A stretch of DNA of 32,000 nucleotides from an uncultured Alphaproteobacteria bacterium (GCA_963753875.1 CAVWDY010000018.1:495057-527056), one strand, 5' to 3'. Positions 1 through 22,609 are shown, counted from the stretch's first letter. Numbers and translations are program-made. Notes: a model not told the origin generated them from the letters alone.

Positions 1-121
1 TCCCTGCACAGCGTCAGTAATGACAAAGGGATTCGGAATTGCCCTTAGGATGCGCGGCCCGCAAGCCGTGGCATTCAGATTGATCACGGTACTCGCATCG
101 ATTACAACCGGCGCCGTGGGG

Positions 122-1321
122 TCAATCAGGCATGAAGGCCCCATCGGCTTCGCTCCCTTCTATTTCCAAGCCATCAAACATGCGCCGCAGCTCGACACGG
201 TCCAAATGGAGCATGCGGGAGAGTTGGCCCTCGCTGAGCATCCCGCGGCGCCAAGCTTCGCCGGCTAGGAGCCCGAGCCGGAGCGTCGTTGGCCTGTCTG
301 CATCCGCCTTATGGATGTCGGGGTTCGTGAGGTCTCCCAATACTTGACCAGCCTGTTGATCGCTAATGCCCCCGTTTGCTTGAAACCAATCCCAAGTGCC
401 GGATTTGGCCAGCTTAAGCTCCTCCAGTCGCCTGACGATCGCTTCACGTGAGACGCCAAAGAAGTGGGCGAGAACAATGACATGCCGACGAGTCAGTTTT
501 TCCGATCCGACGGTGATCTCCTTGCATTTTTGCATGACCGCGCGGGCTGGAGTCATAAATGCTCGGCCGAACGTGTTAGCGTAGCGCTCCTCACGGGAGT
601 TTTCAGTGACGCCTTCTTCCAGCACCTCCGGCTCCCGCCGAGTAGAAACCAGATGACCGAGCTCATGGGCTGCCGTTTGAGCGCGGCGATCGCGCGGATG
701 ATTCCCGTTGAGAAGGATGCAAGCGCCGAGAGCATCGTCGTATGCGAACACGCCGGAAATTCCGCCATCGATGCGACGAATATAGACGCGCACACCAAGT
801 TCGAGCTCCAGCAACGTTACAATGTCGGGGATCGGACTCAAGCCTAGGCCGAGCCGCTGGCGCAGTTCGAGGGCATCCTGTTCCGCCTGCGCCCTAACAT
901 CGCCGGAAAGAATTGGTCGCTCCGGCGGATAATTTCGCAGCGGTTGAACGCCAAGAAGCTGTTCCAGCTCCGCCTCTGCTCGGGCCAAGTCCTCTAACTG
1001 CTTCACAGCAAGCTCGACCGCGTCATCCTCTTGTTGGAACAATTTGCGGAATTTGGGAGTGAAGTCCGCGCGGATCGCCTCCTGCCTCATCATCTCGTTA
1101 ATCGACATTCTGTAAAGATTCGCGAGCTTGCGCAGCTCGTCGATCCGCACACGCCGTTGCCCTAGTTCAATCGCTACTAAGGTGGTCCGCGACAGCCCAA
1201 CGGCTTCCGCTGCTTCCGCTTGCTTCAGCTTCACGCGGTCGCGCGCTTCGCGAAGGCGCTCGCCGACTTCCGTCGGCGGCATGGTATCAAGAAGACTGGT
1301 CATTGACGGCCCACTGAGCAA
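122..1321 (-). CDS. XRE-family HTH fused to ImmA/IrrE (COG2856, M78-like) zinc metallopeptidase, 399 aa
   Basis: N-terminal HTH 'LKQAEAAEAVGLSRTTLVAIELGQRRV'. Central HEXXH motif 'AAHELGHLV'. Overlaps the upstream gene's stop (1287-1289). Alternative in-frame starts at 1303 and 1282. Confidence 0.85.
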   Translation of the reverse strand: MLSGPSMTSLLDTMPPTEVGERLREARDRVKLKQAEAAEAVGLSRTTLVAIELGQRRVRIDELRKLANLYRMSINEMMRQEAIRADFTPKFRKLFQQEDDAVELAVKQLEDLARAEAELEQLLGVQPLRNYPPERPILSGDVRAQAEQDALELRQRLGLGLSPIPDIVTLLELELGVRVYIRRIDGGISGVFAYDDALGACILLNGNHPRDRRAQTAAHELGHLVSTRREPEVLEEGVTENSREERYANTFGRAFMTPARAVMQKCKEITVGSEKLTRRHVIVLAHFFGVSREAIVRRLEELKLAKSGTWDWFQANGGISDQQAGQVLGDLTNPDIHKADADRPTTLRLGLLAGEAWRRGMLSEGQLSRMLHLDRVELRRMFDGLEIEGSEADGAFMPD

Positions 1322-2675
1322 CGAATGACTGCGGTCCCAGAGAACTCATATACGTCTTCCATTCTTTTTGGTGTTGGGAGAGCAGTCGGTCCAGCTTTGG
1401 CCAGATAACGGCTTCCGATTCACCGAGCGCGCGCGCCAGCTGAAAGGCCGCAAGATTGAGTGGCCGTTCCGCCGCGCGTGAATGCTTTAAATACGCGAGG
1501 TGATCGAGATGCAACGTGCCTGCGATTGCATATTGCTTCTGCGCGCGTGTCGTTTTGTTGAAACCTTCAGCGACTCCTGCATCGAAGGTTGGCGCAGAGA
1601 GATTTTCCCACACATAAGTATCTGCAGGTTCCGAGAGATCAGCCGCATGAACACTCAACCGTCGGAGCATGCAAGCAGCGCAAATGCCGCACTGGCGCCG
1701 GTGATTACCGACCGATACATGACGGTTATCCTGCCAGCATGATCTCGTGTTCGACCACTCAGTATCCTTGCCGTCGCTCAATGTCATGTATGCCTTGAGG
1801 GTTTCACCTTTGGTGAACCACAGGCGCGGGAACACGAAGGCGATGTCGGAGCCGAGAAGCATTTTGAAAAACACCGTCATGTGTTTCATGAATCGGGGAT
1901 GGTTACGATAATCCTCATACGCCTGACCGACCGGGACAAGCGTGGGACCGAGCGCGCCCTGTCCGCTCTCCGGTACGATGACCTTGTCCGCTTTGGCGAA
2001 ATACGCAGCCGATCCGCTCAGCACGGCAAATTTGAACCCGCGAGACCGGGCACTTGATTCGATAAAGCGGGATACACCGGGCTTCACTTGGTACGGCAAA
2101 GCCATGAAAGGCTGCGCTCGGCCTAACGAATCTTTCGGCTGGTCCTTCTTCTTCGATCCGAGGCGAACACGGATCAGCCGACCGCCATACTCCTCTGCCA
2201 TCAGCGCGCCGACTGCACGGGAGTCGAGTCCGTCACTGAACGGAATGACCGCCTCGGCTCCCGCATCCAGATGGAAAAGTTCCTGTGCTGGTTCAGCGGC
2301 AGGCTTCTTGCGCTTTATGAAGGTGATTTTCCACTTATCACCCGTCAGGAACTGCAGTGCTTCATGCAAGGCGTCAGACATGGCCTTCTGATTCCAGACG
2401 TCTAGATCATGCACCGGCAAGCGCAGTTCAAAAGCACGGCCCCATCCCAGGGCTGGGCGACGGTGGATGCGATCGCAGAATTCAACGGACGCCGCCAACA
2501 GCATCAGGTCGAATACAACCGGCTCCCATTTCGCGAAAAAATAGGTCGCAAGATCATGCGTCTTAAAGATGAGGTTGGTTTCGATCTCGCAAGAAACCCG
2601 ATTTGCACGAGCGCGTCCGCCGGCTTCGTGCACATCGACTTGGAGTTGGAGTCCGGGCAGTTCATCACCGTTCAT
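1287..2675 (-). CDS. QueC-like PP-loop ATPase (QatC/Cap9-like rather than housekeeping QueC), 462 aa
   Basis: Degenerate PP-loop 'PFSDGLDSRAV' (canonical SGGxDS). QueC-type C-terminal cysteine cluster 'TRSCWQ...RRQCGICAACMLRR'. About 140-aa N-terminal and about 100-aa C-terminal extensions. Start ATG overlaps the upstream stop (ATGA at 2672-2675). Confidence 0.8.
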   Translation of the reverse strand: MNGDELPGLQLQVDVHEAGGRARANRVSCEIETNLIFKTHDLATYFFAKWEPVVFDLMLLAASVEFCDRIHRRPALGWGRAFELRLPVHDLDVWNQKAMSDALHEALQFLTGDKWKITFIKRKKPAAEPAQELFHLDAGAEAVIPFSDGLDSRAVGALMAEEYGGRLIRVRLGSKKKDQPKDSLGRAQPFMALPYQVKPGVSRFIESSARSRGFKFAVLSGSAAYFAKADKVIVPESGQGALGPTLVPVGQAYEDYRNHPRFMKHMTVFFKMLLGSDIAFVFPRLWFTKGETLKAYMTLSDGKDTEWSNTRSCWQDNRHVSVGNHRRQCGICAACMLRRLSVHAADLSEPADTYVWENLSAPTFDAGVAEGFNKTTRAQKQYAIAGTLHLDHLAYLKHSRAAERPLNLAAFQLARALGESEAVIWPKLDRLLSQHQKEWKTYMSSLGPQSFVAQWAVNDQSS

Positions 2676-3250
2676 GGCAGCCTCACGCCGTCTTCAAGAC
2701 CTAGCTGCTTTGCGGATTGGGGTTGAGTGGCTGCGTCCAGACCCGACAAACGAAAAGCGAGACCCGCAATCGGAGCGCTCGCGACAGCGTCCTCCATCCG
2801 ATTTCTGACGCGGATCGTCATTGCTTCGGGGCTCTGCTTGCGCAGATAATGCTCTTCCACTTGCCGGCAGCCCCGCGCTGCGCGGTCGCGCAAGGCGTTT
2901 TCAACGCCGTCGCAAACCGCGTCGATACCAAGTCTTCCACTGTTAACGGATTGCATGACGTGATCGACGATCAGGCGCCGCATCGGATATCCGGCGGAAA
3001 GATCCCGCCGCGCTGCTTCCAGTTCGACTGACTTATCTTGTCCGAACATGTCAGTCTGTTGGGCGTCGCCCATGATCGCGCGGATGGCGCGAACGACTTC
3101 GTCGCAGCCTTCATCGCGCCACGTCTCTTCCAAGGCCGGGACCACACGTCCGGCCACTTCATGAGGCTCAAATGCAGCCTTGTGCGCCCACCCTGCAAAC
3201 TTTTTCCAGGCGCGCGTCATGTTCAAGCTCTTGTACGGACCATCACTCAT
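2672..3250 (-). CDS. Hypothetical protein (192 aa from ATG 3250; the ORF track begins at TTG 3268), first gene of the QueC-like operon
   Basis: Open frame with GGAG 7 nt upstream of ATG at 3250. Stop overlaps the next gene's start. No motif I recognise. Confidence 0.6.
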   Translation of the reverse strand: MSDGPYKSLNMTRAWKKFAGWAHKAAFEPHEVAGRVVPALEETWRDEGCDEVVRAIRAIMGDAQQTDMFGQDKSVELEAARRDLSAGYPMRRLIVDHVMQSVNSGRLGIDAVCDGVENALRDRAARGCRQVEEHYLRKQSPEAMTIRVRNRMEDAVASAPIAGLAFRLSGLDAATQPQSAKQLGLEDGVRLP

Positions 3251-3270
3251 GGCGACTCTCCATGTCAAAA

Positions 3271-3298
3271 ATTATCATGAAAATTCTGACAATGTCAA
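3271..3298 (-). promoter_or_regulatory. Candidate sigma70-type promoter for the minus-strand QueC-like operon
   Basis: Read on the minus strand: TTGACA (3298-3293), 16-nt spacer, GATAAT (3276-3271). This sits about 20 nt upstream of ATG 3250 with GGAG in between. Confidence 0.4.
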
Positions 3299-3337: not shown

Positions 3338-3366
3338 TTGACAACACTCTATCGAAGTTAGATTAT
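3338..3366 (+). promoter_or_regulatory. Candidate sigma70-type promoter for the Xre-RES operon
   Basis: TTGACA at 3338-3343, 17-nt spacer, GATTAT at 3361-3366, about 60 nt upstream of ATG 3426. Confidence 0.4.
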
Positions 3367-3385
3367 CAACCCTGACTATCAACCC
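3364..3385 (+). repeat. Tandem direct repeat TATCAACCC x2 (13-bp register) overlapping the -10 region; candidate operator
   Basis: TATCAACCC at 3364-3372 and 3377-3385, read directly from the sequence. Confidence 0.5.
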
Positions 3386-3425
3386 GTCCTGAAGTCAAAG
3401 GCGAACCAGGGTCGGAGAGGAGGCT

Positions 3426-4517
3426 ATGGTGACCAATCCATCATTAGTGGGCCTGCTGACGGCGGCGGGCGCTGCCGGGCTTGGCGGTCGGTCAATCCTG
3501 GACCAGCCACTGCGGGAGGTCCTGCTGCGTGCTGCAACGTTAAATCCGGAGTTGCACCGGAAGTGGGCAAGTCACTATGCAGTATATCCGACGCAGGAAG
3601 AGGTGATTGCTTCGCTACTAGAGCCGGGTCAGACGGAATCCTATGACGTAGACTTGCTGTCCTCGCTTGAGCGCGAACGAAGCGACGTCGCTTCCGTGGC
3701 GCGGTTTGGACATCGGGTCGAGTATGCCTCGTTTCACCTCTACGTCGCGTTCCGAAAAGCGCTGGTTGACGACTTCGAGCTGTCTCCATCACGCAATGTG
3801 GTGAAGCCGACGCATGGCATCAGCGTCTGGTACTGCAGCCTGGTGAATGCAACGTTCAATCGCTATCGTGATTTGAGGCGTGCACTGCTGCACAAATGGA
3901 CCCCGCCGGCCGAGGTGGAGCCGCTGACCTTGAGTGCCTTCCGGATCCTCAGCGAGATCACGCCGGCGGAGACGCAGCTGCGCAATCTATTCGTTCATGA
4001 TCGGCCCCGCGCGTTCCACGAGCTCGCGCGTCATCTCGACATCGTCGCAGAACAGCTAAAGGCAGCGATCGAGTTGGCTACCGATCTTGAGGCTATCAAA
4101 CCAGACGACATCCCGAGTCCGGAGCAGGCGCAGGTCAAGGCCGTGCAGCTGGAGATTTTGGGCAAGGCTGGCAAACCACTGTCGCTGACTGCGGCTGCCA
4201 AGGAGCTTGGCGTGTCGCGACAGGCCTTGCATAAGCGGATCGGGCTCGGGAGTGCCCTTGGATTGATGCACGGTTCGGAGCTCGTGGTGCCCGACGCGCA
4301 ATTCGTCAGCAAGGACGGCAAGCTTGGAATCGTCGATGGTTTGAACGCGATCGTGAGCTTGTTCGACACATCGGGGGCTGGACGCTGGTCCGCGTTGCAA
4401 TTTCTGACCGAGGTTGATCCCCTGTTGCAACGCGTGCCGCTTGACGTGCTGAAAGAAGGCGATCGGGACGCCGTCGTTAGAGCTACGCGGGCCTATCTCA
4501 GCCTAGACGAGGCGTGA
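3426..4517 (+). CDS. Extended Xre/DUF2384-type antitoxin (MbcA/ParS-like C-terminus) with an internal HTH, 363 aa
   Basis: HTH 'LSLTAAAKELGVSRQALHKRIG'. The C-terminal 'WSALQFLTEVDPLLQRVPLDVLKEGDRDAVVRATRAYL' resembles the RES-antitoxin domain. GGAGAGGAGG lies upstream of the ATG. It sits immediately upstream of the RES gene. Confidence 0.7.
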   Translation: MVTNPSLVGLLTAAGAAGLGGRSILDQPLREVLLRAATLNPELHRKWASHYAVYPTQEEVIASLLEPGQTESYDVDLLSSLERERSDVASVARFGHRVEYASFHLYVAFRKALVDDFELSPSRNVVKPTHGISVWYCSLVNATFNRYRDLRRALLHKWTPPAEVEPLTLSAFRILSEITPAETQLRNLFVHDRPRAFHELARHLDIVAEQLKAAIELATDLEAIKPDDIPSPEQAQVKAVQLEILGKAGKPLSLTAAAKELGVSRQALHKRIGLGSALGLMHGSELVVPDAQFVSKDGKLGIVDGLNAIVSLFDTSGAGRWSALQFLTEVDPLLQRVPLDVLKEGDRDAVVRATRAYLSLDEA

Positions 4518-4526
4518 GGTTCGCCC

Positions 4527-5132
4527 GTGCCGCGCCACGCCTTCCCGTCCGGAGTATTGGAAACTGCGGTCCCTGCCGGACAAGAGCTCGTGCGGGTACA
4601 CCGTTTGTCGAACGGTGCAATTTGGTATGGGCCCGGCCCCGGCAATCCACCGGCGTATCGCTTCGACGCTCCGGCGGGCGAATACCAGACCATCTACTGC
4701 GCCGAGCAATTAACGGGCGCATTCGTTGAGACGGTGCTGCGCCGTGCGCAGCGGATCGTCGGGCGCCCTTTCGTTGAGCAAAGGGGCTGGACGGTGCTCA
4801 CCTGCCGGCGCGAGCTGCGGCTGGCAAAGGTCTTCGACGAGGGCCTGATCCATCATGGGGTGACGGCCGACATCTGCGCTGGCGACGATTATTCAGCGTC
4901 GCAGCGCTTTGCCGGCGATATCTTTGCCGGTTTTCCAGATGTCGATGGTATCGCTTATCGGGCACGACACAATAACGGCCAGATCTGCTACGCGGTATTC
5001 GATCGCGTCGCTGCAACCGAGTTTGTGGAGAAGGAGCGCCGGGCTTTCAAGGATGAGAATGCCATCGTCGAAGCGGTTATGAAACGCCATGGTGCCGTTT
5101 GGGATCCGATGACGCCGCTGCCACCAGCATAG
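4527..5132 (+). CDS. RES-domain toxin (MbcT/ParT-like NAD+-utilising family), 201 aa, GTG start
   Basis: 'YRFDAPAGEYQTIYCAEQLTGAFVETVLRR' gives the Arg and Glu blocks. 'DGIAYRARHNNGQICYAVFDR' is the C-terminal block. GAGG lies 7 nt upstream of the GTG, 9 nt after the antitoxin stop. Confidence 0.8.
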   Translation: MPRHAFPSGVLETAVPAGQELVRVHRLSNGAIWYGPGPGNPPAYRFDAPAGEYQTIYCAEQLTGAFVETVLRRAQRIVGRPFVEQRGWTVLTCRRELRLAKVFDEGLIHHGVTADICAGDDYSASQRFAGDIFAGFPDVDGIAYRARHNNGQICYAVFDRVAATEFVEKERRAFKDENAIVEAVMKRHGAVWDPMTPLPPA

Positions 5133-7526: not shown

Positions 7527-8399
7527 CTAGAGGTAGTTCTGGACTTCTTGCCACAATGCCGAAAATTGCCGATTGAACTGGACAGGCATGCCTTCTTGAA
7601 TCGCCCTTTTTACCCCTACCCTGTCGAAAATGGCAGTGTCGAATACTTTGGCATCGAGTCCGTTCGCAATGCCAACATTTTTGACTACGAGTCTTGCATC
7701 ATCCAGGTAGCGCTGAGTTTCATTACTAAATCGCTTGGTGCTGCTGCCGCCAGGTGGTTTTGCCCTATTCATGAACACGCCAATTTTTGGAACGGGAAAG
7801 GGTTCGATTCGCGCGCGTAGAGTGCTGAGAAGAAGATTGAGGCCCTTGGCTGCGAAGAAGTCTGGATTAATCGGGATCAGTATCAAATTGCAGCAAGAAA
7901 GAACCGAATAACTCAAGAGGCTGAAGGATGGCGGGCAGTCAAAAAGAACGAAATCGTAGTCCGGAACGTTGTTCGAGTTGCGTATCTTTTCTAATAGCCG
8001 GTGAATGAAGAATTTTACTTTTTCACGATCCCACAATTCGAGTTCGGTCCAATACAGATCCTCTACGGAGGGAATGAAATGATAGCGCGTGTTGATCCGA
8101 TAAATGAAGTCGTGATTGATCCCAAAATTGAAATTGCTGTTTGTTTTGGTAAACTCATCTAGGGCATCAAAGATGGTTTTTTTCTTGGCGACTGCCCGTT
8201 CGTACCAGTCAGTAAAATTCTTGAATGGGTTGCCGTCCTCGTTCAGGGCAATAGACTGAGTTAGAGACATCTGCGCATCAAGATCGAACACAAGCGATGA
8301 ATGCTGAGGTGACTCAGCGGCGACGTGGCCCAATGCCCAAGTACTTGTTGTCTTCCCGACACCGCCCTTAAAATTGATGGTTGCAATCGTTTTCATCAT
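7527..8399 (-). CDS. ParA/Soj/MinD-family ATPase, 290 aa
   Basis: Deviant Walker A 'NFKGGVGKTTSTWALG' at the N-terminus. 'VLFDCPPS' is Walker B-like. It starts 23 nt after the HNH gene stop. Confidence 0.85.
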   Translation of the reverse strand: MMKTIATINFKGGVGKTTSTWALGHVAAESPQHSSLVFDLDAQMSLTQSIALNEDGNPFKNFTDWYERAVAKKKTIFDALDEFTKTNSNFNFGINHDFIYRINTRYHFIPSVEDLYWTELELWDREKVKFFIHRLLEKIRNSNNVPDYDFVLFDCPPSFSLLSYSVLSCCNLILIPINPDFFAAKGLNLLLSTLRARIEPFPVPKIGVFMNRAKPPGGSSTKRFSNETQRYLDDARLVVKNVGIANGLDAKVFDTAIFDRVGVKRAIQEGMPVQFNRQFSALWQEVQNYL

Positions 8400-8422
8400 A
8401 GTGCAGCTCCGATTTTTGATCG

Positions 8423-9547
8423 CTACCCAGCAATTTTGAGAATGTTATGCTTTATTCTTTGGTGCTCAACGCGATGGCAAGTTGGACATAGGAGCGCAAA
8501 GTCCTTTACTGTTGTGTATCGCTCACCTTCATCAAGTGGGTTCTTGTGGTGAACGTCGAGCAGGCTTCGCGGGCTTACCTTCGTCGGATCCAACACCGTT
8601 GCCGGGTCAAACCGGCAGTCGTCACAATGTAGAGTTCTCGACCGTCGTCGCTCCCGAATAAATTTGTCGGCAATCCACGCCGCACGACGGCGGACCTTGG
8701 ATTTTCGCTCTTCGGTCATTCCCTCCAATGCACCGTCAGTCAAATCTGAATTTATTGATTTTTGGGTACGCGGATCTATTTCGCTTTCCTCGGCGAGGCG
8801 GATTTCGTCTTCAATTCCTATCCATGCATTTGACGCGTGCACGCTCTCCAATCGGAGGGACGCGAGCGCAACCCGTTCTTCCTCATTGAGAACTCGCAAC
8901 GTCGCTGAGGAGCGTTGGTACAGGCGGCGATAACCAGCCTCTCCAAGCACGGATTTCGCTTTTGGAAATCCCACCACACGATAGGACTCGACGATGGGAA
9001 AGGCGACTGACCAGCGAAAACGGTTTTCGCCCTGCGCCCACATATCTTGAATTCGATTGAAGCCTTCTTCGCCGATGATGGTTTCGAGGGCACGTGCGGT
9101 TGCCCTCAGCTTATGGACTGCGATGAACCGCCCGGCTAGTTCCTTGTGAGCCTCTTTCTCTTTCAGATATTCAGGATCATCTTCAAAGCCCGTGTTGGGT
9201 TGACTGAACTGCTCGGTAATGTACTCGACAACGTAACCCGTCCCGAATTGGCGTTGTATGGTACTCTGGCACATGTTCCTGGCGGTCTGGTCGCCGCCTG
9301 TTGGCGTGAAGCCCAGCCAAGTTGTCCCTGCGAGCCAGTCAGCTTTGGACGCGGTGATGGGTGCAGGCAAGTCATTAACGAACAGATTCGATTTCACGGT
9401 CGCTTGCCTGTCTCTTGTTGCGCGGATGACAAGGGACCGCGAGGTAGCGCCATGATATCCACAATACTGGAGAGCGAGAATGCTCTCTTGTTCTTCCCGC
9501 GCCACCATGGGCGCGAAGGTAAGCCGCAGCCGGCCAGTGTCTCGCAA
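8423..9547 (-). CDS. HNH endonuclease-domain protein with a roughly 280-aa unknown N-terminal region (McrA-like architecture), 374 aa
   Basis: C-terminal 'LHCDDCRF...DVHHKNPLDEGERYTTVKDFALLCPTCHRVEH' is an HNH motif with two CxxC pairs. The N-terminal region has no motif I recognise. Alternative start at Met14 (9508). Confidence 0.8.
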   Translation of the reverse strand: MRDTGRLRLTFAPMVAREEQESILALQYCGYHGATSRSLVIRATRDRQATVKSNLFVNDLPAPITASKADWLAGTTWLGFTPTGGDQTARNMCQSTIQRQFGTGYVVEYITEQFSQPNTGFEDDPEYLKEKEAHKELAGRFIAVHKLRATARALETIIGEEGFNRIQDMWAQGENRFRWSVAFPIVESYRVVGFPKAKSVLGEAGYRRLYQRSSATLRVLNEEERVALASLRLESVHASNAWIGIEDEIRLAEESEIDPRTQKSINSDLTDGALEGMTEERKSKVRRRAAWIADKFIRERRRSRTLHCDDCRFDPATVLDPTKVSPRSLLDVHHKNPLDEGERYTTVKDFALLCPTCHRVEHQRIKHNILKIAG

Positions 9548-9967: not shown

Positions 9968-10780
9968 ATGCAAGCCAACATAGCGAACAAGAGGGAACAG
10001 CTGCGCTCTCCGGACCCGTATTCATCCAAAATCATCAAAGCCGGTGCCTTAATCGGGGACACGAAGACGCTGCTTGCCCACTGGGACATTCGCACCTCGG
10101 TCGACGAAAACCTCGATCGGGCAAGGCGGGATAATGTCTTCGGGAAGGCGTCCCGCTCGCGCGTCGAGGACATCTCAGCGATATTCCGGCAGCGCTACCT
10201 TACCGAGCATTCAGTCACCAAAGCACTTGTCACGCTGGTTCAAAAGAGGTTTCCTGCCGCCGGCTTGGAATGGCTATTTTACTTCCACTCCGCTCGTGCA
10301 GACCGATTGCTATATGATGCCGTGACCGAGATTCTTGTTCCCTTGCACGCGCGAGGTCTAGTCGACATCAACGTGCATGCTTTCCAACGTTCCCTGGCGA
10401 AGTGGGTCAATGAAGGAAAGACGACCGGCCACTGGTCCGAACCCACGATTACCCGGATTGCGCAAGGATTGCTTTCGACTCTACGGGACTTCGGCGTGCT
10501 CCAAGGGGCGGTTAATAAAAGGATTGCACCCGCGTACCTTCCCACCGAGGCATTCGCCTACGTCATGTTTTATTTGAAGCAGCGCCAACCGTCAGGAGTA
10601 AAACTGATCGAGCTTCCCGACTGGAAGTTGTTCTTTTTGTCGCGGGACGGCGTGGAGCGGCTTTTGTTCGAAGCCCACCAGCGGGGCTTGTTGGAATACC
10701 ACGTCGCTGGCAGCGTCACTCGATTGACCTTTCCAGCTGAAACTCTTGACGAGTATGCGAATGTCCTCGCTCAAAGATAG
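9968..10780 (+). CDS. brxA: BREX protein BrxA (DUF1819-like), 270 aa
   Basis: First position in a canonical type 1 BREX gene order. Overlaps the brxB start. The call rests mainly on synteny. Confidence 0.65.
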   Translation: MQANIANKREQLRSPDPYSSKIIKAGALIGDTKTLLAHWDIRTSVDENLDRARRDNVFGKASRSRVEDISAIFRQRYLTEHSVTKALVTLVQKRFPAAGLEWLFYFHSARADRLLYDAVTEILVPLHARGLVDINVHAFQRSLAKWVNEGKTTGHWSEPTITRIAQGLLSTLRDFGVLQGAVNKRIAPAYLPTEAFAYVMFYLKQRQPSGVKLIELPDWKLFFLSRDGVERLLFEAHQRGLLEYHVAGSVTRLTFPAETLDEYANVLAQR

Positions 10781-11360
10781 TATCGCACCTCTGGAAAGCG
10801 ATCTAAAGGCCATACCGCCGAGAATCAGCGTTTACCATGATCTGCCTTTTGCGATCATGCGGTACGACCCGACCGACGAATGGGAGCTTCGACGAGAGAT
10901 TAAATTGCTGGCTACTCGCCTAGAAGCCGTCGGCAAGAAGGTTCACATCATCCCGATGTCAGAACTGCTTTGGTCGGCGATGGAGAAGGTCCACGAAAAA
11001 GACGATGACGAAGGATTAGAGGCCGTCATCAAACTGGAAAAGGAACGCGGCTACGTCGAAGCTCAGCAGCAAATGACCACGTACTTGTCGAGCAAAGTCT
11101 GGATTCAGCTGTGGGATTTGCTCGCGGAACGCCTCGTTTCAATTAGCCCTGAGAATACGGTAGTCTTTCTGATCCGTGCGGCTGCGATGTCGCCAGGTAT
11201 TTTCCACATGTCCATGCTGCTCGACAAAATGAATGGCAAAACCAATGTGACAACGATTTTGTTTTACCCAGGAACGATCGAAGGCACGACCGGACTGCGA
11301 TTCATGGATCTAAAAGATCGTGATGCGCTGGGCAACTATCGGGTCAAGATTTACGGCTGA
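10746..11360 (+). CDS. brxB: BREX protein BrxB (DUF1788-like), about 200 aa
   Basis: Position between brxA and brxC. 'ISVYHDLPFAIMRYDPTDEWELRREI' is typical of the BrxB N-terminus as I recall it. Start ambiguous (10746, 10755 or 10761). Confidence 0.7.
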   Translation: MTSMRMSSLKDSIAPLESDLKAIPPRISVYHDLPFAIMRYDPTDEWELRREIKLLATRLEAVGKKVHIIPMSELLWSAMEKVHEKDDDEGLEAVIKLEKERGYVEAQQQMTTYLSSKVWIQLWDLLAERLVSISPENTVVFLIRAAAMSPGIFHMSMLLDKMNGKTNVTTILFYPGTIEGTTGLRFMDLKDRDALGNYRVKIYG

Positions 11361-11376
11361 GGAAACGAGTAACCAA

Positions 11377-14300
11377 ATGACGACAATCGGCGATCTGCTG
11401 ACACGTGATCTTAGCCGCAAGATCGAAGAGATCATCCAAGTCGATCAGGCCGATGAGCATTCGGTTCATTCTGAGATATCGGAATACGTTGCTACCGATA
11501 GTATCCGCGAACAGTACTATGGTCTCCTCAAAGCCATTGCTGAGGCTCCCAGCGATCCTAATGAAAGCGTCGGCGTCTGGGTGTCGGGCTTCTTCGGGTC
11601 TGGCAAAAGCTCATTTGCCAAGAACCTCGGCTACGCACTGGAGAACCGCACGGTTCTCGGCAGCAGATTTGCTGATCTCTTCAAGCAGCAACTTGGCGAT
11701 AACCGCACAAGCGATTTACTCGACCTCATTAATGCCAAGACGCCAACTCAGGTTATCCTTTTTGAGGTCGCGAAGGAGGCCGACACACGGAAGGTCACGC
11801 AACGAATTGCCGAGTTGATGTACACTGTTCTTCTGCGTGAGCTTGGTTACTCGGAAGACTTCGACATTGCTGAACTGGAAATAGAACTTGAAGCCGAGGG
11901 CAAACTGCCGGAGTTTGTTGCAACTTGCAAAACGCTGCTGAACAGAGACTGGGAAGCAGTCCGGTCCGGGGCGCAAAAATTGTCGCGCGCGAGTGCCATT
12001 CTAAATCAGCTTGATAGGAAGCTCTATCCTTCTGCGGATTCGTGGTCCCATTCTCAGCGTAATCGAGACGCGTCGATTTCCGTCAGCAAAGTAGTTAAGC
12101 GCACGTTCGAGCTATGGGGACGTCGCCGAAAGGGTAAAGCCCTTGTATTCATCATTGACGAAGTCGGCCAGCACGTCGCTCGCAGCGGCGACAAGATTGA
12201 AGACCTACGGGCGACCATCGAAGAATTCGGCAAGGTCAGTAAAAACTTGCTCAAGGAAGGCAAGATTACCGCTCCTTGCTGGATCGTTGTCACATCCCAG
12301 GAAAAGCTGGATGAAGTGGTCGCCGCGATAGATTCCAAGAGAGTCGAACTTGCTAAGTTGCAAGATCGCTTCCACCATCGCGTCGACTTGGCTCCCTCGG
12401 ACATCAGGGAGGTAGCCACCAAACGAGTCTTAGCGAAGACGGCCCAGGCTGTGATAACGCTCAAGAATCTCTTTTCTAAAAACCAAGGCGTGTTGAACGC
12501 CGCGCTGCGACTCGAACGTACGACCCGCCGCACCGACATCAGCGAAAGTGATTTCGTTCACTTTTATCCCTATCCGCCACACTACATCGATCTTTGCATT
12601 GGGATCATGTCGGGCATTCGACTGCAGCCAGGGGCTCCACGGCACTACGGAGGCAGCAACCGTACGATCATCAAGCAGGCGTACGAGATGCTGGTGTCGG
12701 ATCGTACTGCATTCGCCAAAATGCCCGTTGGAGCGCTTGTGACGCTCGACAAGGTGTTTGAGTTGGTAGAAGGAAACCTCTCTAACGAGAAGCGCACGGA
12801 CATTCACCAAATTGCCGAGCGATTCAAAAGCGATCCCGAAGATCGCGGGTGGGCGTTGCGGGTTGCCAAGGCCACCTGCCTTCTGGAATTCATTCGTGAT
12901 CTGCCCCGCACAGACGCCAATCTCGCCGCTGTGCTGGTCGACGAGGTGGGCAAGGCAACCCCGCTGAGTGAAGTTCAAGCTGCTGTAAAGCGGTTGAATA
13001 CTGCCCAGTTCATTCGCAATACTGAAGAGGGCTGGAAGCTCCAGACAGCGCAGGAGAAGAACTGGGAGACGGAACGGCGGGGATATCTCGAACCGAAGCC
13101 TCGTGAGCGCAATGAGCTTTCACGCACCGCTCTCCAGCAAATCTTTGATGAGCCGGAATTCAAGACCTTCCGCTACCAGAATCGCTCGTTCCGGATCGGC
13201 ATAAGCGTTGATGGATCAAACATTGGCGATGAAGGCGAACTCCTTCTGACCCTGTGCGTGGCTGAGGATACCGACGAACTTACCAAACGCATCGAAGAGA
13301 CGCGCACCGAGAGTCAGCAGAAATCTCACGAGAATGATCTTTACTGGCTCTTTTGCATGACGCCTGAGATCGATGAATTGGTTGGCCAGCTTCACGCCTC
13401 ACGCAAGATGGTGGACAAATACAACCAGCTCAGCGCCCAGCAAAAAATCAGTCCCGACGAAGCAACGTGCCTCCAGGACGAGAAAAACTCCAAGAACAGC
13501 TACGAAATCCGGTTGCGGGACAAGCTGACCGAGGCGATGGAGCGTGGCACCGGTATGTTCCGCGGCGTACAGAAAGACGCGTCCGCCTTAGGCAAAGGGT
13601 TAGGAGAAATCCTGAAGAAGCTCTTTGGTCAGGTCGTACCCGACTTGTACCCAAAGTTGCAAATGGGATCTCGGCCGCTGAAGGGCGATGAAGCCGAACA
13701 AGTCCTCAAAGCGGCTGACCTCAAAGCATTGCCTAACGTCTTCTACGCGGGCGATCACGGGCTGGGGCTGGTCGTCAAGGATGGCCCCAAGACCATTGTC
13801 AACAAGAATGCCGATGTCGCCAAGGAAGTCCTCGATTACTTAAAGAGCGAGCACAGCTACGGCAACAAAGACAGTCGCATGGGCAAGGCACTCGAAAAGC
13901 GATTCGGCGGCACGCCCTATGGCTGGGAACGTGACATGCTGCGACTGATCCTTGCCACGTTATTCCGAGCGGGTGAAATCGAGGTCACCTACCAAGGTAA
14001 CCGCTTCCACAACTACCAAGACCCGGCCTGCCGTACGCCCTTCACCAGCAATCCCGCATTCCGGTCGTCTCTGTTTTCGCCCCGGCAATCAGTCGGCCTC
14101 AAGACGCTCACGCAGGCCGTTCAGCAGCTCGAAGAGCTAACGGGAGAAGACGTCGACGTCGAAGAAGGCGCCATCGCTACGGCGTTCAAGAAAGTCGCCG
14201 CGGAGGAACTTGAAAAACTCTATCCGCTAAAGGCTACCGCAGAGGCCCACCGGCTCCCGATCCTGTCCATGCTGTCCGAGTATCAGCAGACGCTGGCGGG

Positions 14301-15042
14301 AATTCAATCGTCCGCTTCCGACGACTGTGTGCGTATTCTCACTGAGAATGGCAAGGACTTCGGGGGAACCAGAGAAAAGGTACGGAGGCTCCGTGAATTG
14401 CTGAATGCTGAGGCCATTAGCGTTCTGCGGGAGGCCCGACAAGCAACGGATCAAGTGTGGCAACGGCTTGCCGCTCACAATCCCTCGCCGGAACTCGAAA
14501 CGACGGTCGAGAAATTGAGAAACAACTTGGCCTCTGAATCGTTCATCAACTCGTGGGACGAGATCGCCGGCAGCACCAAGACGGTTCTGGAAGCCTACCG
14601 CATCGCCTACTGCGAATTGTTTGATCGTCGTAAGAAGTCCTACGAGTCGGCGATTGGTGAGATCAAAAATCGCCCCGAATGGGGGCCGCTGGAGGCTAAC
14701 AACTCTAGTATGGCCGCGATGCTCTTGTCGCCGCTACAAGGTCGGGTTGGCACAGACGAAGATAAGGAATCGGTAAAAGTTGGCACATCGCTAGGGAGGT
14801 CCAGCCTCACCGAGATGGAATCAGACCTTGCCGCCGTCGATGGACTGAAATCGTCAATTTTGGTCAAGTTGCAAGAACTGTCGATCGGTGGCGAGAAAAA
14901 GTCGCCGATCCGAAAGGTGCGAATCTCGGAATTCTTCAATCGTCCGATCCAGACGCAACCAGAACTCGACAAAGCTCTCGATCTCATAAGGGATTCACTT
15001 CAGAAGTACATCGATGAAGGCGCAATCATCATTCTGGAGTGA
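11377..15042 (+). CDS. brxC: BREX ATPase BrxC/PglY, 1221 aa from ATG 11377 (the ORF track begins at 11320)
   Basis: P-loop 'GFFGSGKSSFAKNLGYAL'. Size about 1200 aa. Synteny. ATG 11377 follows the brxB stop (11358-11360), with GAGGAA upstream. Confidence 0.9.
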   Translation: MTTIGDLLTRDLSRKIEEIIQVDQADEHSVHSEISEYVATDSIREQYYGLLKAIAEAPSDPNESVGVWVSGFFGSGKSSFAKNLGYALENRTVLGSRFADLFKQQLGDNRTSDLLDLINAKTPTQVILFEVAKEADTRKVTQRIAELMYTVLLRELGYSEDFDIAELEIELEAEGKLPEFVATCKTLLNRDWEAVRSGAQKLSRASAILNQLDRKLYPSADSWSHSQRNRDASISVSKVVKRTFELWGRRRKGKALVFIIDEVGQHVARSGDKIEDLRATIEEFGKVSKNLLKEGKITAPCWIVVTSQEKLDEVVAAIDSKRVELAKLQDRFHHRVDLAPSDIREVATKRVLAKTAQAVITLKNLFSKNQGVLNAALRLERTTRRTDISESDFVHFYPYPPHYIDLCIGIMSGIRLQPGAPRHYGGSNRTIIKQAYEMLVSDRTAFAKMPVGALVTLDKVFELVEGNLSNEKRTDIHQIAERFKSDPEDRGWALRVAKATCLLEFIRDLPRTDANLAAVLVDEVGKATPLSEVQAAVKRLNTAQFIRNTEEGWKLQTAQEKNWETERRGYLEPKPRERNELSRTALQQIFDEPEFKTFRYQNRSFRIGISVDGSNIGDEGELLLTLCVAEDTDELTKRIEETRTESQQKSHENDLYWLFCMTPEIDELVGQLHASRKMVDKYNQLSAQQKISPDEATCLQDEKNSKNSYEIRLRDKLTEAMERGTGMFRGVQKDASALGKGLGEILKKLFGQVVPDLYPKLQMGSRPLKGDEAEQVLKAADLKALPNVFYAGDHGLGLVVKDGPKTIVNKNADVAKEVLDYLKSEHSYGNKDSRMGKALEKRFGGTPYGWERDMLRLILATLFRAGEIEVTYQGNRFHNYQDPACRTPFTSNPAFRSSLFSPRQSVGLKTLTQAVQQLEELTGEDVDVEEGAIATAFKKVAAEELEKLYPLKATAEAHRLPILSMLSEYQQTLAGIQSSASDDCVRILTENGKDFGGTREKVRRLRELLNAEAISVLREARQATDQVWQRLAAHNPSPELETTVEKLRNNLASESFINSWDEIAGSTKTVLEAYRIAYCELFDRRKKSYESAIGEIKNRPEWGPLEANNSSMAAMLLSPLQGRVGTDEDKESVKVGTSLGRSSLTEMESDLAAVDGLKSSILVKLQELSIGGEKKSPIRKVRISEFFNRPIQTQPELDKALDLIRDSLQKYIDEGAIIILE

Positions 15043-15045
15043 ACG

Positions 15046-15867
15046 ATGCTGAGTCCACGACAGATATTTGAAGACAACATTCGGCCAGCAGACCTGCTTC
15101 TAAAGGTCTTCCGGCTGTTGGAGCATGATTCACTCAATACCGAAGAAGCATTACTTCGTTCGCTTCGTGAACTTGTGAAAGCAGAGAAAGACGAAAGCCT
15201 GCTGGTCATTTCCAACGGCATCTTTCTGGGATTGATCCGGGAATTGGCCGAAGTGCCGCCGTCATCGATCAAACGCAGTGCCTTGTGCAATTTGCTGCGT
15301 CAGGCCGTTGTCACCGCCAGCACTGCTTTGGAGACGTACCTGCCCATCTTGCTGAGGGACAATCTGCCAGAAATTATTCGGCTCCGTGGACGAGATTTTG
15401 TTCCAAGGAACGATGAAGCGTTCAAGAATCAATTCAAGGAACTGAAATTTGACCTTGATGAAGCAGTCCGCATTTTGGTTGATCCCGATCCACTGTTCCT
15501 TGCCAACAAAATGATTAGTAGCCTGAACTTCAGCTACCTCAACGGCAGACGGGGCGTCCATGTCACAGGCGTGCTGCTCGGTCTGGACAATCCGTGGAGC
15601 CTCGTCGCTCAGCAACTGGGACGAGCAGAAGAAGAAATCAAAAAAACACTCGATATTACAGTGAAACGTCGCAACGATATCGTGCATCGGGCCGACCGTT
15701 CGCAGGATGATCCCGCCGGCGCCGCTCAAGAGATAGGCTTCCCGTGGGCAAAGCAGGCGGTCGAAACGATTCGGGTCGTTTGCCTTGCACTGGATGATCT
15801 TGTGGTGAGCCGGCTAAATGGATTGAAACAACTAGCGGCGGCGTCACAACCGCAAGGCGCGGCGTGA
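15046..15867 (+). CDS. Non-canonical BREX-embedded gene: putative HEPN-domain protein, 273 aa
   Basis: 'TVKRRNDIVHRADR' contains R-N-x3-H, the Rx4-6H HEPN signature. The sequence is Leu/Glu/Ala-rich. ATG lies 3 nt after the brxC TGA, with GGAG 6 nt upstream. Its TGA is followed after 1 nt by the pglX ATG. Confidence 0.55.
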   Translation: MLSPRQIFEDNIRPADLLLKVFRLLEHDSLNTEEALLRSLRELVKAEKDESLLVISNGIFLGLIRELAEVPPSSIKRSALCNLLRQAVVTASTALETYLPILLRDNLPEIIRLRGRDFVPRNDEAFKNQFKELKFDLDEAVRILVDPDPLFLANKMISSLNFSYLNGRRGVHVTGVLLGLDNPWSLVAQQLGRAEEEIKKTLDITVKRRNDIVHRADRSQDDPAGAAQEIGFPWAKQAVETIRVVCLALDDLVVSRLNGLKQLAAASQPQGAA

Positions 15868-15868
15868 C

Positions 15869-18800
15869 ATGGACACGGAGATTCGAAACAAGCTCCGCAA
15901 TGTCGTGACGCGGTGTCGCAAGCTGCTGGAAGACTCCATTTCACAGGAGCTTGAGGGGAAGTACGGTATCTTCGTCAAGAATGATCAGGTGATCGCAAAT
16001 CCGAACGCCTCGATGGCCCATCTAAAAGAAGAGGAGCAGTCGGCTCGTAAGGATATCCTCGATCACTTCGGCCACATCATAGCCCGTGGTTTCAAGCCGA
16101 ATGAAGCTCTAGACCAGTTGGTGCGTGAAATTGCTTTTACACATCTAAACCGGCTCTGCGCCTACAAGATGATGGAGGCCCGCGAGGTCTATGTGGGCGG
16201 TCAAAAGTTCCGTGAGGCTGTAAGTCGCGGTATTAACTCCAATGGCGTAAAATTCTATCTGGCGGACAACCCCGAAGAAGAGCGCCTATTCAATACAGGT
16301 CATCAAGATACTGCATACCGGCATTTTCTGGATTGGCTAGGCGGGGCGCTCTCCGACGAAATCGGCGTCCTGTTCAATCCCAACGACCCGGCCAATCGGC
16401 TCTATCCTCGGCAACAGACGCTCGATGAAGTGCTGGACCTGTTGAACGGCGGTGGCATCAAAGTCGACGAGATCGAGTTACGGGAGCAATGGCCGAAGAT
16501 TTGGTCACAAGACGAAACCATCGGCTGGGTCTACCAGTATTTCACGCCCAAGGAACTACGAGATAAAGCCCGCAAGGCAAGCCCAGCCCCTCGAAACTCG
16601 TACGAATTGGCCTTCCGCAATCAGTTCTTTACGCCGCGCTACGTGGTCGAGTTCCTTACGGACAATACACTGGGTCGCATCTGGTTTGAGATGCGCAAAG
16701 GTGACACAAAGCTCAAGGACCAGTGTCGCTACTTAGTCTGTCACCCCAGCGAGTATTTCCTAAGGGAAGGAGAGCAGCGGCCCATTGACGCTGTCGAGGG
16801 GCCCGCCGACCTTCCGCAGGAAAAATTGTTCGAACGCCCGGTTAACATTCCGCACCGCCCGAAGAAAGATCCAAGGGAGCTGAAGATTCTCGACCCGGCA
16901 TGTGGGAGCGGTCACTTCTTGCTGTACTGCTTTGACTTACTGCTGACGATTTATGAGGAAGCATATTACGACCCCGACCTCGGCCCGGCGTTCCAGATCA
17001 AGCCCGTCGAAGAGTTTCGGCGCGATATTCCGGGCCTGATCCTCGCCCATAACTTGCACGGTATCGACATAGACGTGCGGGCTAGTCAAATTGCCGCCCT
17101 TGCGCTCTGGCTCCGCTGCCAACGGGCCTATCAAGACATGGGGCTGAAGAAAGATCGTCCCAAGATCACCCGTTCGAACTTTGTTTGTGCCGAACCAATG
17201 CCTGGTGAAGAACAAATACTTCAGGAGTTTGTCTCACAACTTGAACCGAAGGTTCTTGGCCAAGTGGTCGAAGTTGTCTTCGACAAGATGAAGTTAGCTG
17301 GGGAGATTGGCACGCTCCTCAAGATTGAAGAGGAGATTCGAGTTGCAGTCTCAGAAGCCAAAGAACAATGGGTCCGAGAAACGACCCTTGCCACGGATCG
17401 CAAGGGCCAGCAGCTCTTGTTCACACAAGCGGCAATGGATCGGTTGGATGGCAAGCCTACGCAACCCTCGCTCTTCGATTTGTCTGATGTCACCGACGAT
17501 CAGTTTTTCGAGCGAGCCGAAGTAAAGGTAATTGAGGCTCTTCGTTTCTACGCAGAGAAGGCCCATAACGGACAGCAACTTCAGCGACGGCTTTTCACGG
17601 AAGATGCCGTGCGCGGATTTGGTTTCGTGGATTTGTGCCACAAGCGGTTCGATGTTGTGCTGATGAATCCACCGTTCGGCGAGCCGATAAAGTCCACGCA
17701 AGGGTACTTGGAAGCGAACTATCCGCACACGAAGCATGATCTTTTTGCTGCGTTTTGTGATCGAGCAATGGGACTTTTGAATGAATCGGGGATGATAGGA
17801 GAAATTTCAAGTAGGGTCGGCTTTTTCATCCGCTCATTTGAAGAATGGCGAAACGATTTGCTCAACTCATGGCAAATTACGCTAATGGCTGATCTTGGGT
17901 CGCATGTTCTCGACACAGCGGCGGTCGAGGTGGCATGCTACGTAATACAGCGACCTTCTGAGCGTGCGGCCGCTACGTACGTATTTCGGCTGCTAGTCGA
18001 AACGCAGAAGGCAGTTAGACTACTGCATGCGTGCCAGAACCTTGCGGATCGGAATTGCTTTATTCTCACGACAGACCGCTTTAAAATTCTACCGCTTCAT
18101 CCATTCGTTTATTGGGTCGAATCTGAAACACTACGAAAGTTCACTTCCCATCCGACGGTTGAACCATCAGCGGGAGTTGTCCGTCAGGGCTTGGGCACCG
18201 GTGACAATTTTCGCTTTGTTCGGGCCATCTGGGAGGTGCCAGTCCAATCGATCGCTGGTCACCAATGTGTCACTCCGAACGAGGTCCGAAATCAGCTCTC
18301 TGGGGCAAAGACATGGGCCGTTCACGTAAGGTCGGGAGCTTCGCAGCCCTGGTATTCTCCACTTACAGTCGTAATTGATTGGGAAAGACAAGGCGAACGA
18401 CTGAAAGACCATTGGCGATCAAAGGGTGAGTCGCCCTCTCGGTATATTCCCAGCGAAGACTTATATTTTCGTCCTGGAATTAGTTGGACACGAAGGGCAT
18501 TCCGCCTGATTCCGTACATTGTGCCAACAGGGTGCATCCCTTCTGCAAGTCGTTATATGGCTTTCCCTGAGGATGCGCACCGGATCAACCTCTTAGGTCT
18601 GAGCGCTTCGGCTGTAGCCACGTTATTTATGCGGTTCTACGGAGAAAAGTTCGAGCATCCTAATCATTTGGTCGATACTTTCAAAAAGCTACCCTTCGTT
18701 TCATTGGAAGCCAATACGCAGGCATCAATTCGTTCGACCGCCGAGAGCGAGGTGAGTAAGCGAAAGCGGTATTATGCAAACTACGAGCCGTATTCTGATT

Positions 18801-22599: not shown

Positions 22600-22609
22600 G
22601 GAGTCAAGC

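Follow-up and report, generated by a model that had tools for sequence, protein, structure and literature searches.

Gene content of the locus

A gene cassette lies at the left edge of a 32,000-nucleotide stretch of DNA from an uncultured Alphaproteobacteria bacterium (GCA_963753875.1 CAVWDY010000018.1:495057-527056; the whole stretch is hereafter called the window), and it had been described in a sequence-only reading as a three-gene operon. Our analysis revealed that the operon comprises four genes, the last one being cut by the window edge, and that these four genes form an obligate unit, in which a small helical protein and a QatC-family enzyme precede a fused helix-turn-helix (HTH) and M78 peptidase protein and a predicted PIN-domain nuclease. 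The cassette is most likely a self-repressed anti-phage or toxin–antitoxin module.

Open reading frame (ORF) calling on the minus strand recovered all three genes of the sequence-only reading at the positions and sizes that it had given. Gene 1 (2672-3250, minus strand), which occupies the position of QatB, starts at ATG 3250 behind the Shine-Dalgarno sequence GGAGAG (3261-3256) and encodes an all-helical protein of 192 aa. Gene 2 (1287-2675, minus strand) encodes a QatC-family PP-loop ATPase/ligase of 462 aa with N- and C-terminal extensions, and gene 3 (122-1321, minus strand) encodes, when counted from a TTG start, a protein of 399 aa with an XRE HTH, an M78/ImmA-IrrE peptidase, and a UPF0175-like segment; ATG 1303 is an alternative start. 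The overlapping stops and starts that had been reported are present, with 4 nt shared between genes 1 and 2 and 17-35 nt between genes 2 and 3, depending on the choice of the gene 3 start. A TTG at 3268 was considered as the start of gene 1 and rejected, as it lies directly against the -10 box and every homologue begins at the methionine of MSDGP behind the Shine-Dalgarno sequence.

The description as three genes was thus accurate for those genes and incomplete for the operon. A fourth frame opens at ATG 144, 23 nt ahead of the gene 3 stop, and exits the left edge of the window; its Shine-Dalgarno sequence, GGGAG, lies inside gene 3, 9-13 nt upstream of the ATG. The visible part (1-144, minus strand) comprises the first 48 codons of a 207-aa protein of the COG2405/DUF3368 PIN type. 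Because gene 4 runs out of the window, the apparent lack of a nuclease partner was a boundary artefact. Upstream of gene 1, the near-consensus promoter that had been noted is a sigma-70-type element (3271-3298, minus strand; TTGACA at 3298-3293, a 16-nt spacer, and GATAAT at 3276-3271) that matches 11 of 12 consensus positions. The quoted protein motifs, FSDGLDS and SCWQ...CGICAACMLRR of the enzyme and HELGH of the peptidase, were all located in the ORFs.

Conservation, linkage, and mobility of the cassette

Relatives of the enzyme were sought in about 185,600 species-representative genomes and confirmed in 335 stretches, and 80 related loci from such genomes were tabulated for their neighbors. 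These loci span Alpha-, Beta-, Gamma-, and Deltaproteobacteria, Acidobacteriota, Verrucomicrobiota, Chloroflexota, Planctomycetota, Spirochaetota, and others. The small protein is encoded directly upstream of the enzyme in 79 of the 80 loci, the remaining locus being a contig that begins inside the enzyme gene, and the HTH-M78 gene follows the enzyme directly in all 80. A PIN gene was detected by tblastn in 76 loci; the contigs of the other four end too early, so that the gene is present in 76 of 76. Where the ORF had been called, it encodes 205-220 aa on the same strand and starts 22-28 nt before the HTH-M78 stop. Recurrence of this order in 79-80 of the 80 loci, across many phyla, shows that genes 1 to 3 are real genes rather than chance ORFs, and homologues of the enzyme are accompanied by these fixed partners instead of queD, queE, or tgt. 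The four-gene layout is kept even where enzyme identity falls to 37-40%. The search for a fifth conserved gene ended in rejection, the commonest neighbor, Fic, being present in just 14 of 71 loci.

The same linkage was observed on plasmids. The enzyme subfamily is present on 25 plasmid records, 14 of them conjugative; the HTH-M78 subfamily (at least 49% identity) is found on the identical 25 records, and the PIN gene on those 25 and one more. This orphan PIN gene, on an unannotated Microvirga sp. VF16 plasmid (L099, 5001-5585; 39% identity), is not accompanied by any of its three cassette partners within 5 kb and is the sole exception to the 1:1 linkage on plasmids. No copy of the enzyme was detected in 50,697 phage records, a result that is neutral for a role in defense. 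Horizontal mobility of the cassette, in defense islands and on plasmids, is the best reading of this distribution.

When the pairwise distances within each protein family were compared between the four proteins, the matrices were correlated, with Spearman coefficients of 0.60-0.80 and the highest value between the enzyme and the HTH-M78 protein (0.80). Mean pairwise identity rises from 39% (small protein) through 50% (PIN protein) and 54% (enzyme) to 66% (HTH-M78 protein), which makes the HTH-M78 protein the slowest-evolving of the four. The small-protein family alone comprises 913 representatives at 50% clustering (E <= 1e-3), of which 326 are retained at E <= 1e-30.

A conserved putative operator

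In 79 related loci, the region preceding gene 1 has the same promoter layout as the window, and most of these regions also carry a palindrome. In the window, this putative operator, O1 (3287-3297, TGACATTGTCA), covers the -35 box and is the only copy of TGACAnTGTCA. The palindrome is exact in 67 of the 79 upstream regions and has at most one mismatch in 77, and those 67 exact copies are the sole occurrences in 960 kb of fetched loci. A putative half-site, O2 (3262-3267, minus strand; (C)TGACAT), lies between the -10 box and the Shine-Dalgarno sequence, approximately at the transcription start. TGACA occurs within 30 nt of the gene 1 ATG in 71 of 79 loci, and the half-site stands 30-31 bp downstream of the O1 start in 69 of 70, 15-21 nt before the ATG. 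Both elements are kept from Proteobacteria to Acidobacteriota and Chloroflexota, which implies that the cassette moves between hosts with its own autoregulation. The arrangement is what one would expect of an operator to which the highly conserved HTH of gene 3 would bind.

The QatC-family enzyme

Gene 2 was recognized by QatC models of PADLOC (3.5e-32) and NCBIfam (NF041925; 1.6e-35, at 122.7 bits, where the curated cut-off is 280), and by QatC structures in the PDB (9zee_B and 9vlk_A), at 9e-16 with the single sequence and at 3e-24 with the family profile over residues 54-373. Pfam QueC reached 30.7 bits, above its gathering score, over the C-terminal third of QueC alone, whereas the models specific to QueC failed (TIGR00364, 23.5 bits against 150.3; PRK11106, 15 against 378). 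With 462 aa, the protein is twice as long as QueC (about 220 aa) and carries extensions of the QatC type. The current name given by PGAP, 7-cyano-7-deazaguanine synthase, and the QueC name that JGI also uses would place it in queuosine or preQ0 biosynthesis, yet queD, queE, and tgt are lacking both from the window and from the 71 nearest upstream neighbors, and canonical QatC itself fails to complement a queC deletion (PMC13329287). The sequence-only reading, which had taken the enzyme as QatC-like and outside queuosine housekeeping, and had noted the absence of queF as well, is upheld by domain scans of the window.

A joint MAFFT alignment of the gene 2 family with nine canonical QatC sequences from plasmids revealed both shared and divergent features. 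The QatC-specific features described previously (PMC13329287, PMC13279940) are kept, including the equivalent of D63 (D56), D..R..WxR, FLTGDxW, RxRxxxF, ExG, HP, and PxxxxTK, and the zinc cysteines (C313, C329, C332, and C335, followed by RR) are common to QatC. By contrast, the PP-loop reads FS[DE]GLDS instead of the FSGGLDS of QatC, and Y-E-D-[YF]-R-N-H-P replaces the invariant S-T-R-T-T-H-P, such that D255 and R257 align with T278 and T280 of QatC, whose mutation abolishes Qat defense (PMC13279940). The C-terminal extension has invariant motifs of its own, YAIAGTLHLDHL and QH..EW. Whether Y253 and D255 correspond to the Tyr-x-Asp pair of QueC and Cap9 for 7-carboxy-7-deazaguanine (CDG) depends on the alignment: the single-sequence HMMER alignment to QueC 2pg3 fits, while the family-profile alignment puts H259-P260 on the Y-P of QueC. 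On the basis of these comparisons, we assign gene 2 to the QatC family, as a member other than canonical QatC.

The small helical partner

As the sequence-only reading had noted, the 192-aa product of gene 1 has no recognizable domain: scans of Pfam, PADLOC, and NCBIfam and sequence searches of the PDB gave no match, and neither did a viral structure library. AlphaFold2 (pLDDT 87) models it as entirely helical apart from a disordered tail at the C-terminus. Outside close relatives, identity to the window copy is 27-40%, and the N-terminus is nevertheless near-invariant across phyla, with the consensus M-S-D-G-P-H/Y-K/R-S-L-P-M-x3-W (MSDGPYKSLNM..W in the window). Distant cassettes start with MTDGPFR (L091) or (V)RDGIWKGLPL (L092), and the most constant positions with these members included are D3, G4, L9, P10, and W15. 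Other conserved patches are VEEHYxR (131-137) and, in the disordered C-terminus, GLDDGVxL. Several database entries (P0377, P0387, P0403, and similar) start at profile position 11; the gene callers chose Met11 and dropped the MSDGPHxSLP tail, and such truncated entries would mask the most informative feature of the family.

The conserved N-terminus invites comparison with QatB. QatB and the CD-NTase of type IV CBASS are defined by a conserved N-terminus (MGTS and MGGS, respectively) which is inserted into the QueC-like active site; an N-terminal QatB peptide carrying the NDG modification has been detected, and QatB with QatC is enough for defense against some phages (PMC13279940, PMC13376578, PMC13639016). 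The N-terminus of gene 1 is as would be expected of a tail that is fed into a ligase and, by analogy, points to substrate-like behavior. The homology of the two proteins, which the sequence-only reading had singled out for checking, was not supported in five tests. Single-sequence PADLOC and NCBIfam scans gave no QatB match; 49 family members searched with PADLOC gave one (E 0.025); QatB was not found when the family profile was run against the PDB; hhalign against eight QatB sequences reconstructed from plasmids returned a probability of 1.8%; and in Foldseek QatB (9y02_A) ranked third by E-value, at a top probability of 0.54, TM 0.36, and E 0.57, which is not significant. We therefore do not claim homology of gene 1 and QatB. 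The deazaguanine-type adduct on the small protein, which the sequence-only reading had put forward, would likewise be expected by analogy alone.

The HTH-peptidase protein and the PIN nuclease

Gene 3 is the XRE-HTH and ImmA fusion that had been described, with Pfam matches to HTH_3 (8.7e-13, residues approximately 18-80) and Peptidase_M78 (3.7e-16, residues 174-300). Both domains, the catalytic H219-E220-x-x-H223, and a downstream EERYAN motif are present throughout the 52 aligned members, and the C-terminal 100 residues are conserved like the remainder. PADLOC models of RmrA (15 matching, best 2.1e-25), capP (8.5e-13), and capH (7.4e-9) support the RmrA-type architecture proposed in the sequence-only reading, and the best PDB match to the M78 part is 9vzy, a 393-aa HTH protein. 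A UPF0175 match was observed at the C-terminus of 47 of the 52 members (best 2.9e-6), all below the Pfam cut-off; in the window copy it covers residues approximately 351-379.

Published work gives this combination a context. UPF0175 is found exclusively beside COG2405 PIN genes, which are also co-transcribed with HTH plus DUF955 (M78) proteins (Matelska et al., PMC5499597), and sets of Xre-COG2856 with PIN or RelE were predicted to be three-component toxin–antitoxin systems (Makarova et al., PMC2701414). For RmrA, an ImmA-domain protein, antitoxin function is confirmed, and its node associates with PIN-like toxins (Ernits et al., PMC10440598). Gene 3 is thus probably a repressor and protease and an antitoxin too, as far as domain content indicates. 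The next-closest HTH-M78 proteins on plasmids (28-31% identity) belong to two-gene units, each followed by a 171-aa protein, and the partner from Sphingopyxis matches the gene 4 PIN profile (4e-13). The existence of such two-gene units suggests that a Rosmer-like HTH-M78/PIN pair and a QatB/QatC-like pair were joined to form the quartet, whichever of the two acquired the other.

The 48 visible codons of gene 4 are 94% identical to their counterpart in the related locus L001 and identical to the N-terminus of a 207-aa protein (P0215), the full-length gene 4 protein from the same genome. PF11848 (DUF3368, COG2405 PIN) is precomputed on all 120 homologues among the matches listed, and Pfam scans of the family gave weak PIN matches. 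The AlphaFold2 model of P0215 (pLDDT 91.7) retrieved exclusively PIN/VapC structures among its top 50 Foldseek matches in the PDB (probability 0.96-1.00), with a target TM of about 0.6-0.7 for entries of VapC size. Invariant acidic residues (D16, E49, D99/D100/E102, D119, and D141) are found throughout the family, whose members carry a 60-aa helical C-terminal extension. By fold prediction, gene 4 is a PIN-domain nuclease of the COG2405 type. Most members begin with M-G-L-S-C-L-x-D-P (144-118, minus strand, in the window), so that Gly2 would be exposed after removal of the methionine, as in QatB and CdnD; this residue is not invariant, as MALPT and MDSPT variants occur. From its sequence, the PIN N-terminus is a possible alternative acceptor for the ligase.

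Relationship to known defense systems

The enzyme and its partner most resemble those of QatABCD, a system with a minimal QatB-QatC core (Gao et al. 2020; PMC13279940, PMC13376578, PMC13639016). In both, the enzyme has an N-terminal extension, a QueC-like PP-loop core, four zinc cysteines, and a C-terminal extension; the small all-helical partner is encoded directly upstream, with a 4-nt overlap; and the extreme N-terminus is the most conserved part of that partner. The differences are considerable. Neither QatA (KAP NTPase) nor QatD (TatD) is present in any of the 80 cassette loci, whereas every canonical QatC examined on plasmids has both beside it. The cassette partner has approximately 190 aa, against 240-300 aa for QatB, lacks a long disordered linker, and starts with MSDGP rather than MGTS, and the HTH-M78 and PIN genes are additional. 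The quartet stands beside QatABCD as a sister arrangement; there, a core of this type is joined to a KAP NTPase and a TatD nuclease.

The plasmid comparison yielded two further observations on canonical Qat loci. RefSeq starts of plasmid qatB genes are often placed too far downstream (L081, 2928-3776; L083, 2889-3785; L085, 2047-2922), the real ORFs opening with MGTS 60-100 codons earlier, as also noted in PMC13279940. On plasmid pUSD135-3 of Bradyrhizobium japonicum USDA 135 (L089, 1656-3776), ISRj2 stands in the place of qatA and the qatB frame has no MGTS start, so that this system is probably inactivated.

The second half of the cassette resembles RosmerTA (described by Millman 2022, as cited in PMC10440598) and the Xre-COG2856 plus PIN sets, in that a fused XRE-HTH and M78/ImmA protein stands upstream of, and overlaps, a toxin-type gene, here a COG2405/DUF3368 PIN. 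The RmrA-type feature is shared, and a UPF0175-like element, from an antitoxin family specific to COG2405 PINs, is present below threshold. Those systems consist of two genes or of three separate ones, whereas the cassette pair always stands behind the QatB/QatC-like pair under one promoter, and its UPF0175-like part is fused to the protease rather than encoded as a separate small antitoxin. RmrT models of PADLOC match none of the four cassette proteins. The logic of an HTH repressor with an M78 peptidase acting on a defense operon through an operator that overlaps the promoter is also that of CapH/CapP, a pair encoded by separate genes in which CapP cleaves CapH upon DNA damage, and from which the cassette differs in that the two domains are fused, encoded third in the operon rather than upstream or divergently, and followed by an extra conserved C-terminal domain and then a coupled PIN gene.

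More distant similarities are found in type IV CBASS and in PDC-S70. Cap9 is likewise a QueC-family enzyme thought to modify the N-terminus of a partner from the same operon (10.1101/2025.04.06.647259), but it is minimal, at approximately 185 aa, and keeps the canonical active-site motifs of QueC (PMC13329287); searches of the window and of the conserved unit revealed no CD-NTase, TGT-like Cap10, or cyclic-nucleotide effector. PDC-S70 models match 39 of 39 gene 4 family members (best 1.9e-12; P0215, 2.3e-6), and PDC-S70 is a PIN nuclease too. It is an unvalidated single-gene candidate of approximately 125-160 aa (PMC12988326), whereas the cassette PIN closes a fixed operon of four genes, has a C-terminal extension, and is solitary just once, on the Microvirga plasmid.

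No curated model of PADLOC or NCBIfam names the set, in agreement with the sequence-only reading, which had found the trio to match no named system. Its statement that the named partners are absent holds for QatA, QatD, the CD-NTase, and the TGT-like protein and fails for the nuclease, as gene 4 supplies one. Its view of a Rosmerta-like or Qat-like hybrid remains a good description, from which the PIN toxin of the Rosmer-like half, placed where QatD would stand, was missing. In the literature library that was searched, we found no paper that links QueC or QatC with HTH, M78, or ImmA, and in the neighborhood table of the QueC sequence similarity network paper, the QatC cluster lists KAP_NTPase and TatD alone. 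Across the cassette, the PGAP labels read hypothetical, 7-cyano-7-deazaguanine synthase, XRE family transcriptional regulator or ImmA/IrrE, and hypothetical or DNA-binding. The novelty therefore resides in the joining of a known core (QueC-family/QatBC) to a known Rosmer-like protease-PIN pair, and the system is not categorically new.

Genomic neighborhood

The setting is a defense island, in which a RES gene and BREX lie next to the cassette, as the sequence-only reading had stated. A divergent operon encodes a 363-aa protein and a RES-domain protein (3338-5132, plus strand) and is driven by a second near-consensus promoter, TTGACA-17-GATTAT (3338-3366), directed away from the cassette; the 363-aa protein has no Pfam match and is much larger than the usual Xre/DUF2384 antitoxin of RES toxins. 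Between RES and BREX, a ParA/AAA_31-like ATPase and a protein of 374 aa, which has an HNH motif in its C-terminal part, are encoded as a tight pair (7527-9547, minus strand) that may be another small defense or partition module. A complete type 1 BREX system (BrxA, BrxB, BrxC, PglX, PglZ, and BrxL) follows at 9968-24637, with a HEPN (RiboL-PSP) gene (15046-15867, plus strand) inserted between brxC and pglX. Transposases are also present in the window, and in a transposase-rich region a SAM-I/IV riboswitch match (26403-26512, plus strand; 43.8 bits against the Rfam gathering score of 41.1) overlaps the start of an ORF (26458-27063) whose sole domain is a C-terminal XRE HTH, an unusual pairing.

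Elsewhere, the nearest upstream neighbors of the cassette include Fic (14 of 71), HipA (5 of 71), AbiEi/AbiEii, RES, ArdC, integrases, and relaxases, and the neighbors on plasmids include AbiE, Shedu, dGTPase, and VapBC. The Fic gene, of the DUF4172-Fic type, is divergent and stands 110-260 bp upstream of the cassette (4163-5287 in L001, and 13 other loci) in both Alphaproteobacteria and Acidobacteriota. It is absent from the window and too rare for membership, at a frequency above chance-like adjacency.

A proposed mechanism and its alternatives

We propose, with moderate confidence, that the cassette unites a QatBC-like pair with a Rosmer-like HTH-ImmA/PIN toxin–antitoxin pair and is self-repressed. 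Gene content, linkage, domains, catalytic residues, and the operator were computed as described above, and from them we infer the biochemical steps, the trigger, and the anti-phage phenotype that follow. In the first half, the QatC-family enzyme would bind the small helical protein, adenylate a carboxylate with ATP, probably that of host CDG by analogy with QatC and Cap9, and then move the group to the N-terminal tail of the small protein, starting at Ser2 after removal of Met1; the balance tips slightly in favor of such a modification. In the second half, the HTH of protein 3, seated on TGACAnTGTCA and on the half-site at the transcription start, would keep expression of the operon low, and repression through the palindrome is very probable. 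The UPF0175-like C-terminus of protein 3 would hold the PIN nuclease inactive, a step for and against which we see the arguments as evenly matched.

The M78 peptidase would be the switch. Upon infection, the state of the gene 1/gene 2 complex would be sensed, and the peptidase would cleave itself or the C-terminal tail of protein 1; with repression and neutralization lost, the PIN nuclease would degrade RNA and the infection would be aborted. That the system acts against phages by abortive infection is fairly probable, while the trigger, namely an infection-altered complex of protein 1 and the enzyme that activates the peptidase, is tentative and on the whole doubtful. We further suggest, as an unlikely but specific extension, that a mark on the S2-D3-G4-P5 tail is the signal read by the repressor-protease-antitoxin to free the PIN nuclease. 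In a stranger variant of this extension, which draws on the constancy of D3 and G4 in the most distant member and on the acidic first glycine position of the PP-loop, the enzyme may adenylate the carboxylate of the protein's own Asp3 rather than CDG, a chemistry undescribed for QueC-family proteins.

Several points weigh against the proposed mechanism. Homology between the small protein and QatB was not detectable, and the structural match is not significant. It also lacks Gly2, which is essential in QatB and CdnD; this absence and the invariant Asp3 are real differences from those proteins, where G2D inactivates. Residue 2 is Arg in the distant cassette L092, and Met1 may therefore not be removed there. 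In the enzyme, T278 and T280 of QatC are replaced and the first glycine of the PP-loop is Asp or Glu, such that ATP binding may be altered or the chemistry may be different. The UPF0175 match lies under the Pfam cut-off in every member scanned (17.9 against 27.9 bits in the window), and only gene linkage ties the state of the gene 1/gene 2 complex to the peptidase.

One alternative is that protein 3 is a transcriptional switch only, of the CapH/CapP or ImmR/ImmA type, which would sense DNA damage or stress, cleave itself, and induce the operon with no antitoxin role, whereupon the modified small protein would activate the PIN nuclease directly or act alone as in QatBC. The capP and capH matches of protein 3, the conserved operator over the promoter, the sub-threshold UPF0175 signal, and the sufficiency of QatBC alone for defense (PMC13279940) are all in keeping with this account. 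The constraint on protein 3, which is the slowest-evolving member and is conserved throughout, including its C-terminal 100 residues, nevertheless exceeds that usual for a plain repressor. Moreover, gene 4 is translationally coupled to gene 3, standalone HTH-M78 and PIN pairs look like toxin–antitoxin modules, and UPF0175 is specific to COG2405 PIN partners (PMC5499597). We consider a switch without antitoxin function rather unlikely.

Somewhat less probable again is the idea that two unrelated selfish modules, a QatBC-like defense pair and an addiction pair that stabilizes it, travel together with no cross-talk. Standalone relatives of each half do exist, as QatBC within QatABCD and as two-gene HTH-M78 and PIN units, and the cassette is often plasmid-borne. 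Independent passengers are difficult to reconcile with obligate 1:1 linkage, one conserved promoter and operator, and overlapping frames in all loci across phyla, and the HTH-M78 subfamily (at least 49% identity) never occurs on plasmids without the QatC-like gene.

The tight association of the ligase and the peptidase could also be explained if the ligase placed a tag on protein 1 at its N-terminus and the tagged residues were stripped by the M78 peptidase, in analogy to Cap2/Cap3 of type II CBASS, so that a threshold for activation of the PIN nuclease would be set. The two enzymes always occur together, their distance matrices correlate best of all pairs, and the conservation of the first 10-15 residues in protein 1 goes far beyond what a single acceptor residue would need. 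Known M78/ImmA enzymes, on the other hand, cleave C-terminal parts of HTH repressors (PMC12828697, PMC2701414), and no trimmer of N-termini is known among them; we regard this cycle as improbable. A housekeeping or specialized role in 7-deazaguanine (queuosine/preQ0) biosynthesis, as the PGAP name and the Pfam QueC match would have it, can be set aside as extremely improbable, given the failed QueC models, the doubled length with QatC-type extensions, and the missing pathway genes.

Implications

For QatABCD, the structural papers of 2026 left open what the QatC-dependent modification of QatB does downstream and how the phage is stopped; some phages are stopped without QatA and QatD, and no effector is known. 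As a natural experiment, the cassette presents a sister QatC subfamily with a partner of its own, wired to an explicit switch (HTH-M78) and an explicit effector (PIN), and its conserved operator offers a simple transcriptional read-out. The cassette is common, and as it is systematically mis-annotated as a 7-cyano-7-deazaguanine synthase accompanied by hypothetical proteins, it is missed by defense catalogues and by inferences of the queuosine pathway alike. If the two halves of the proposed QatBC-like and Rosmer-like union communicate, the cassette would provide a tractable route to the output of protein modification by the QueC family, and if the tail mark is indeed what the repressor-protease-antitoxin reads, a nucleobase (or other adenylate-derived) protein tag would be the trigger of a protease-gated toxin.

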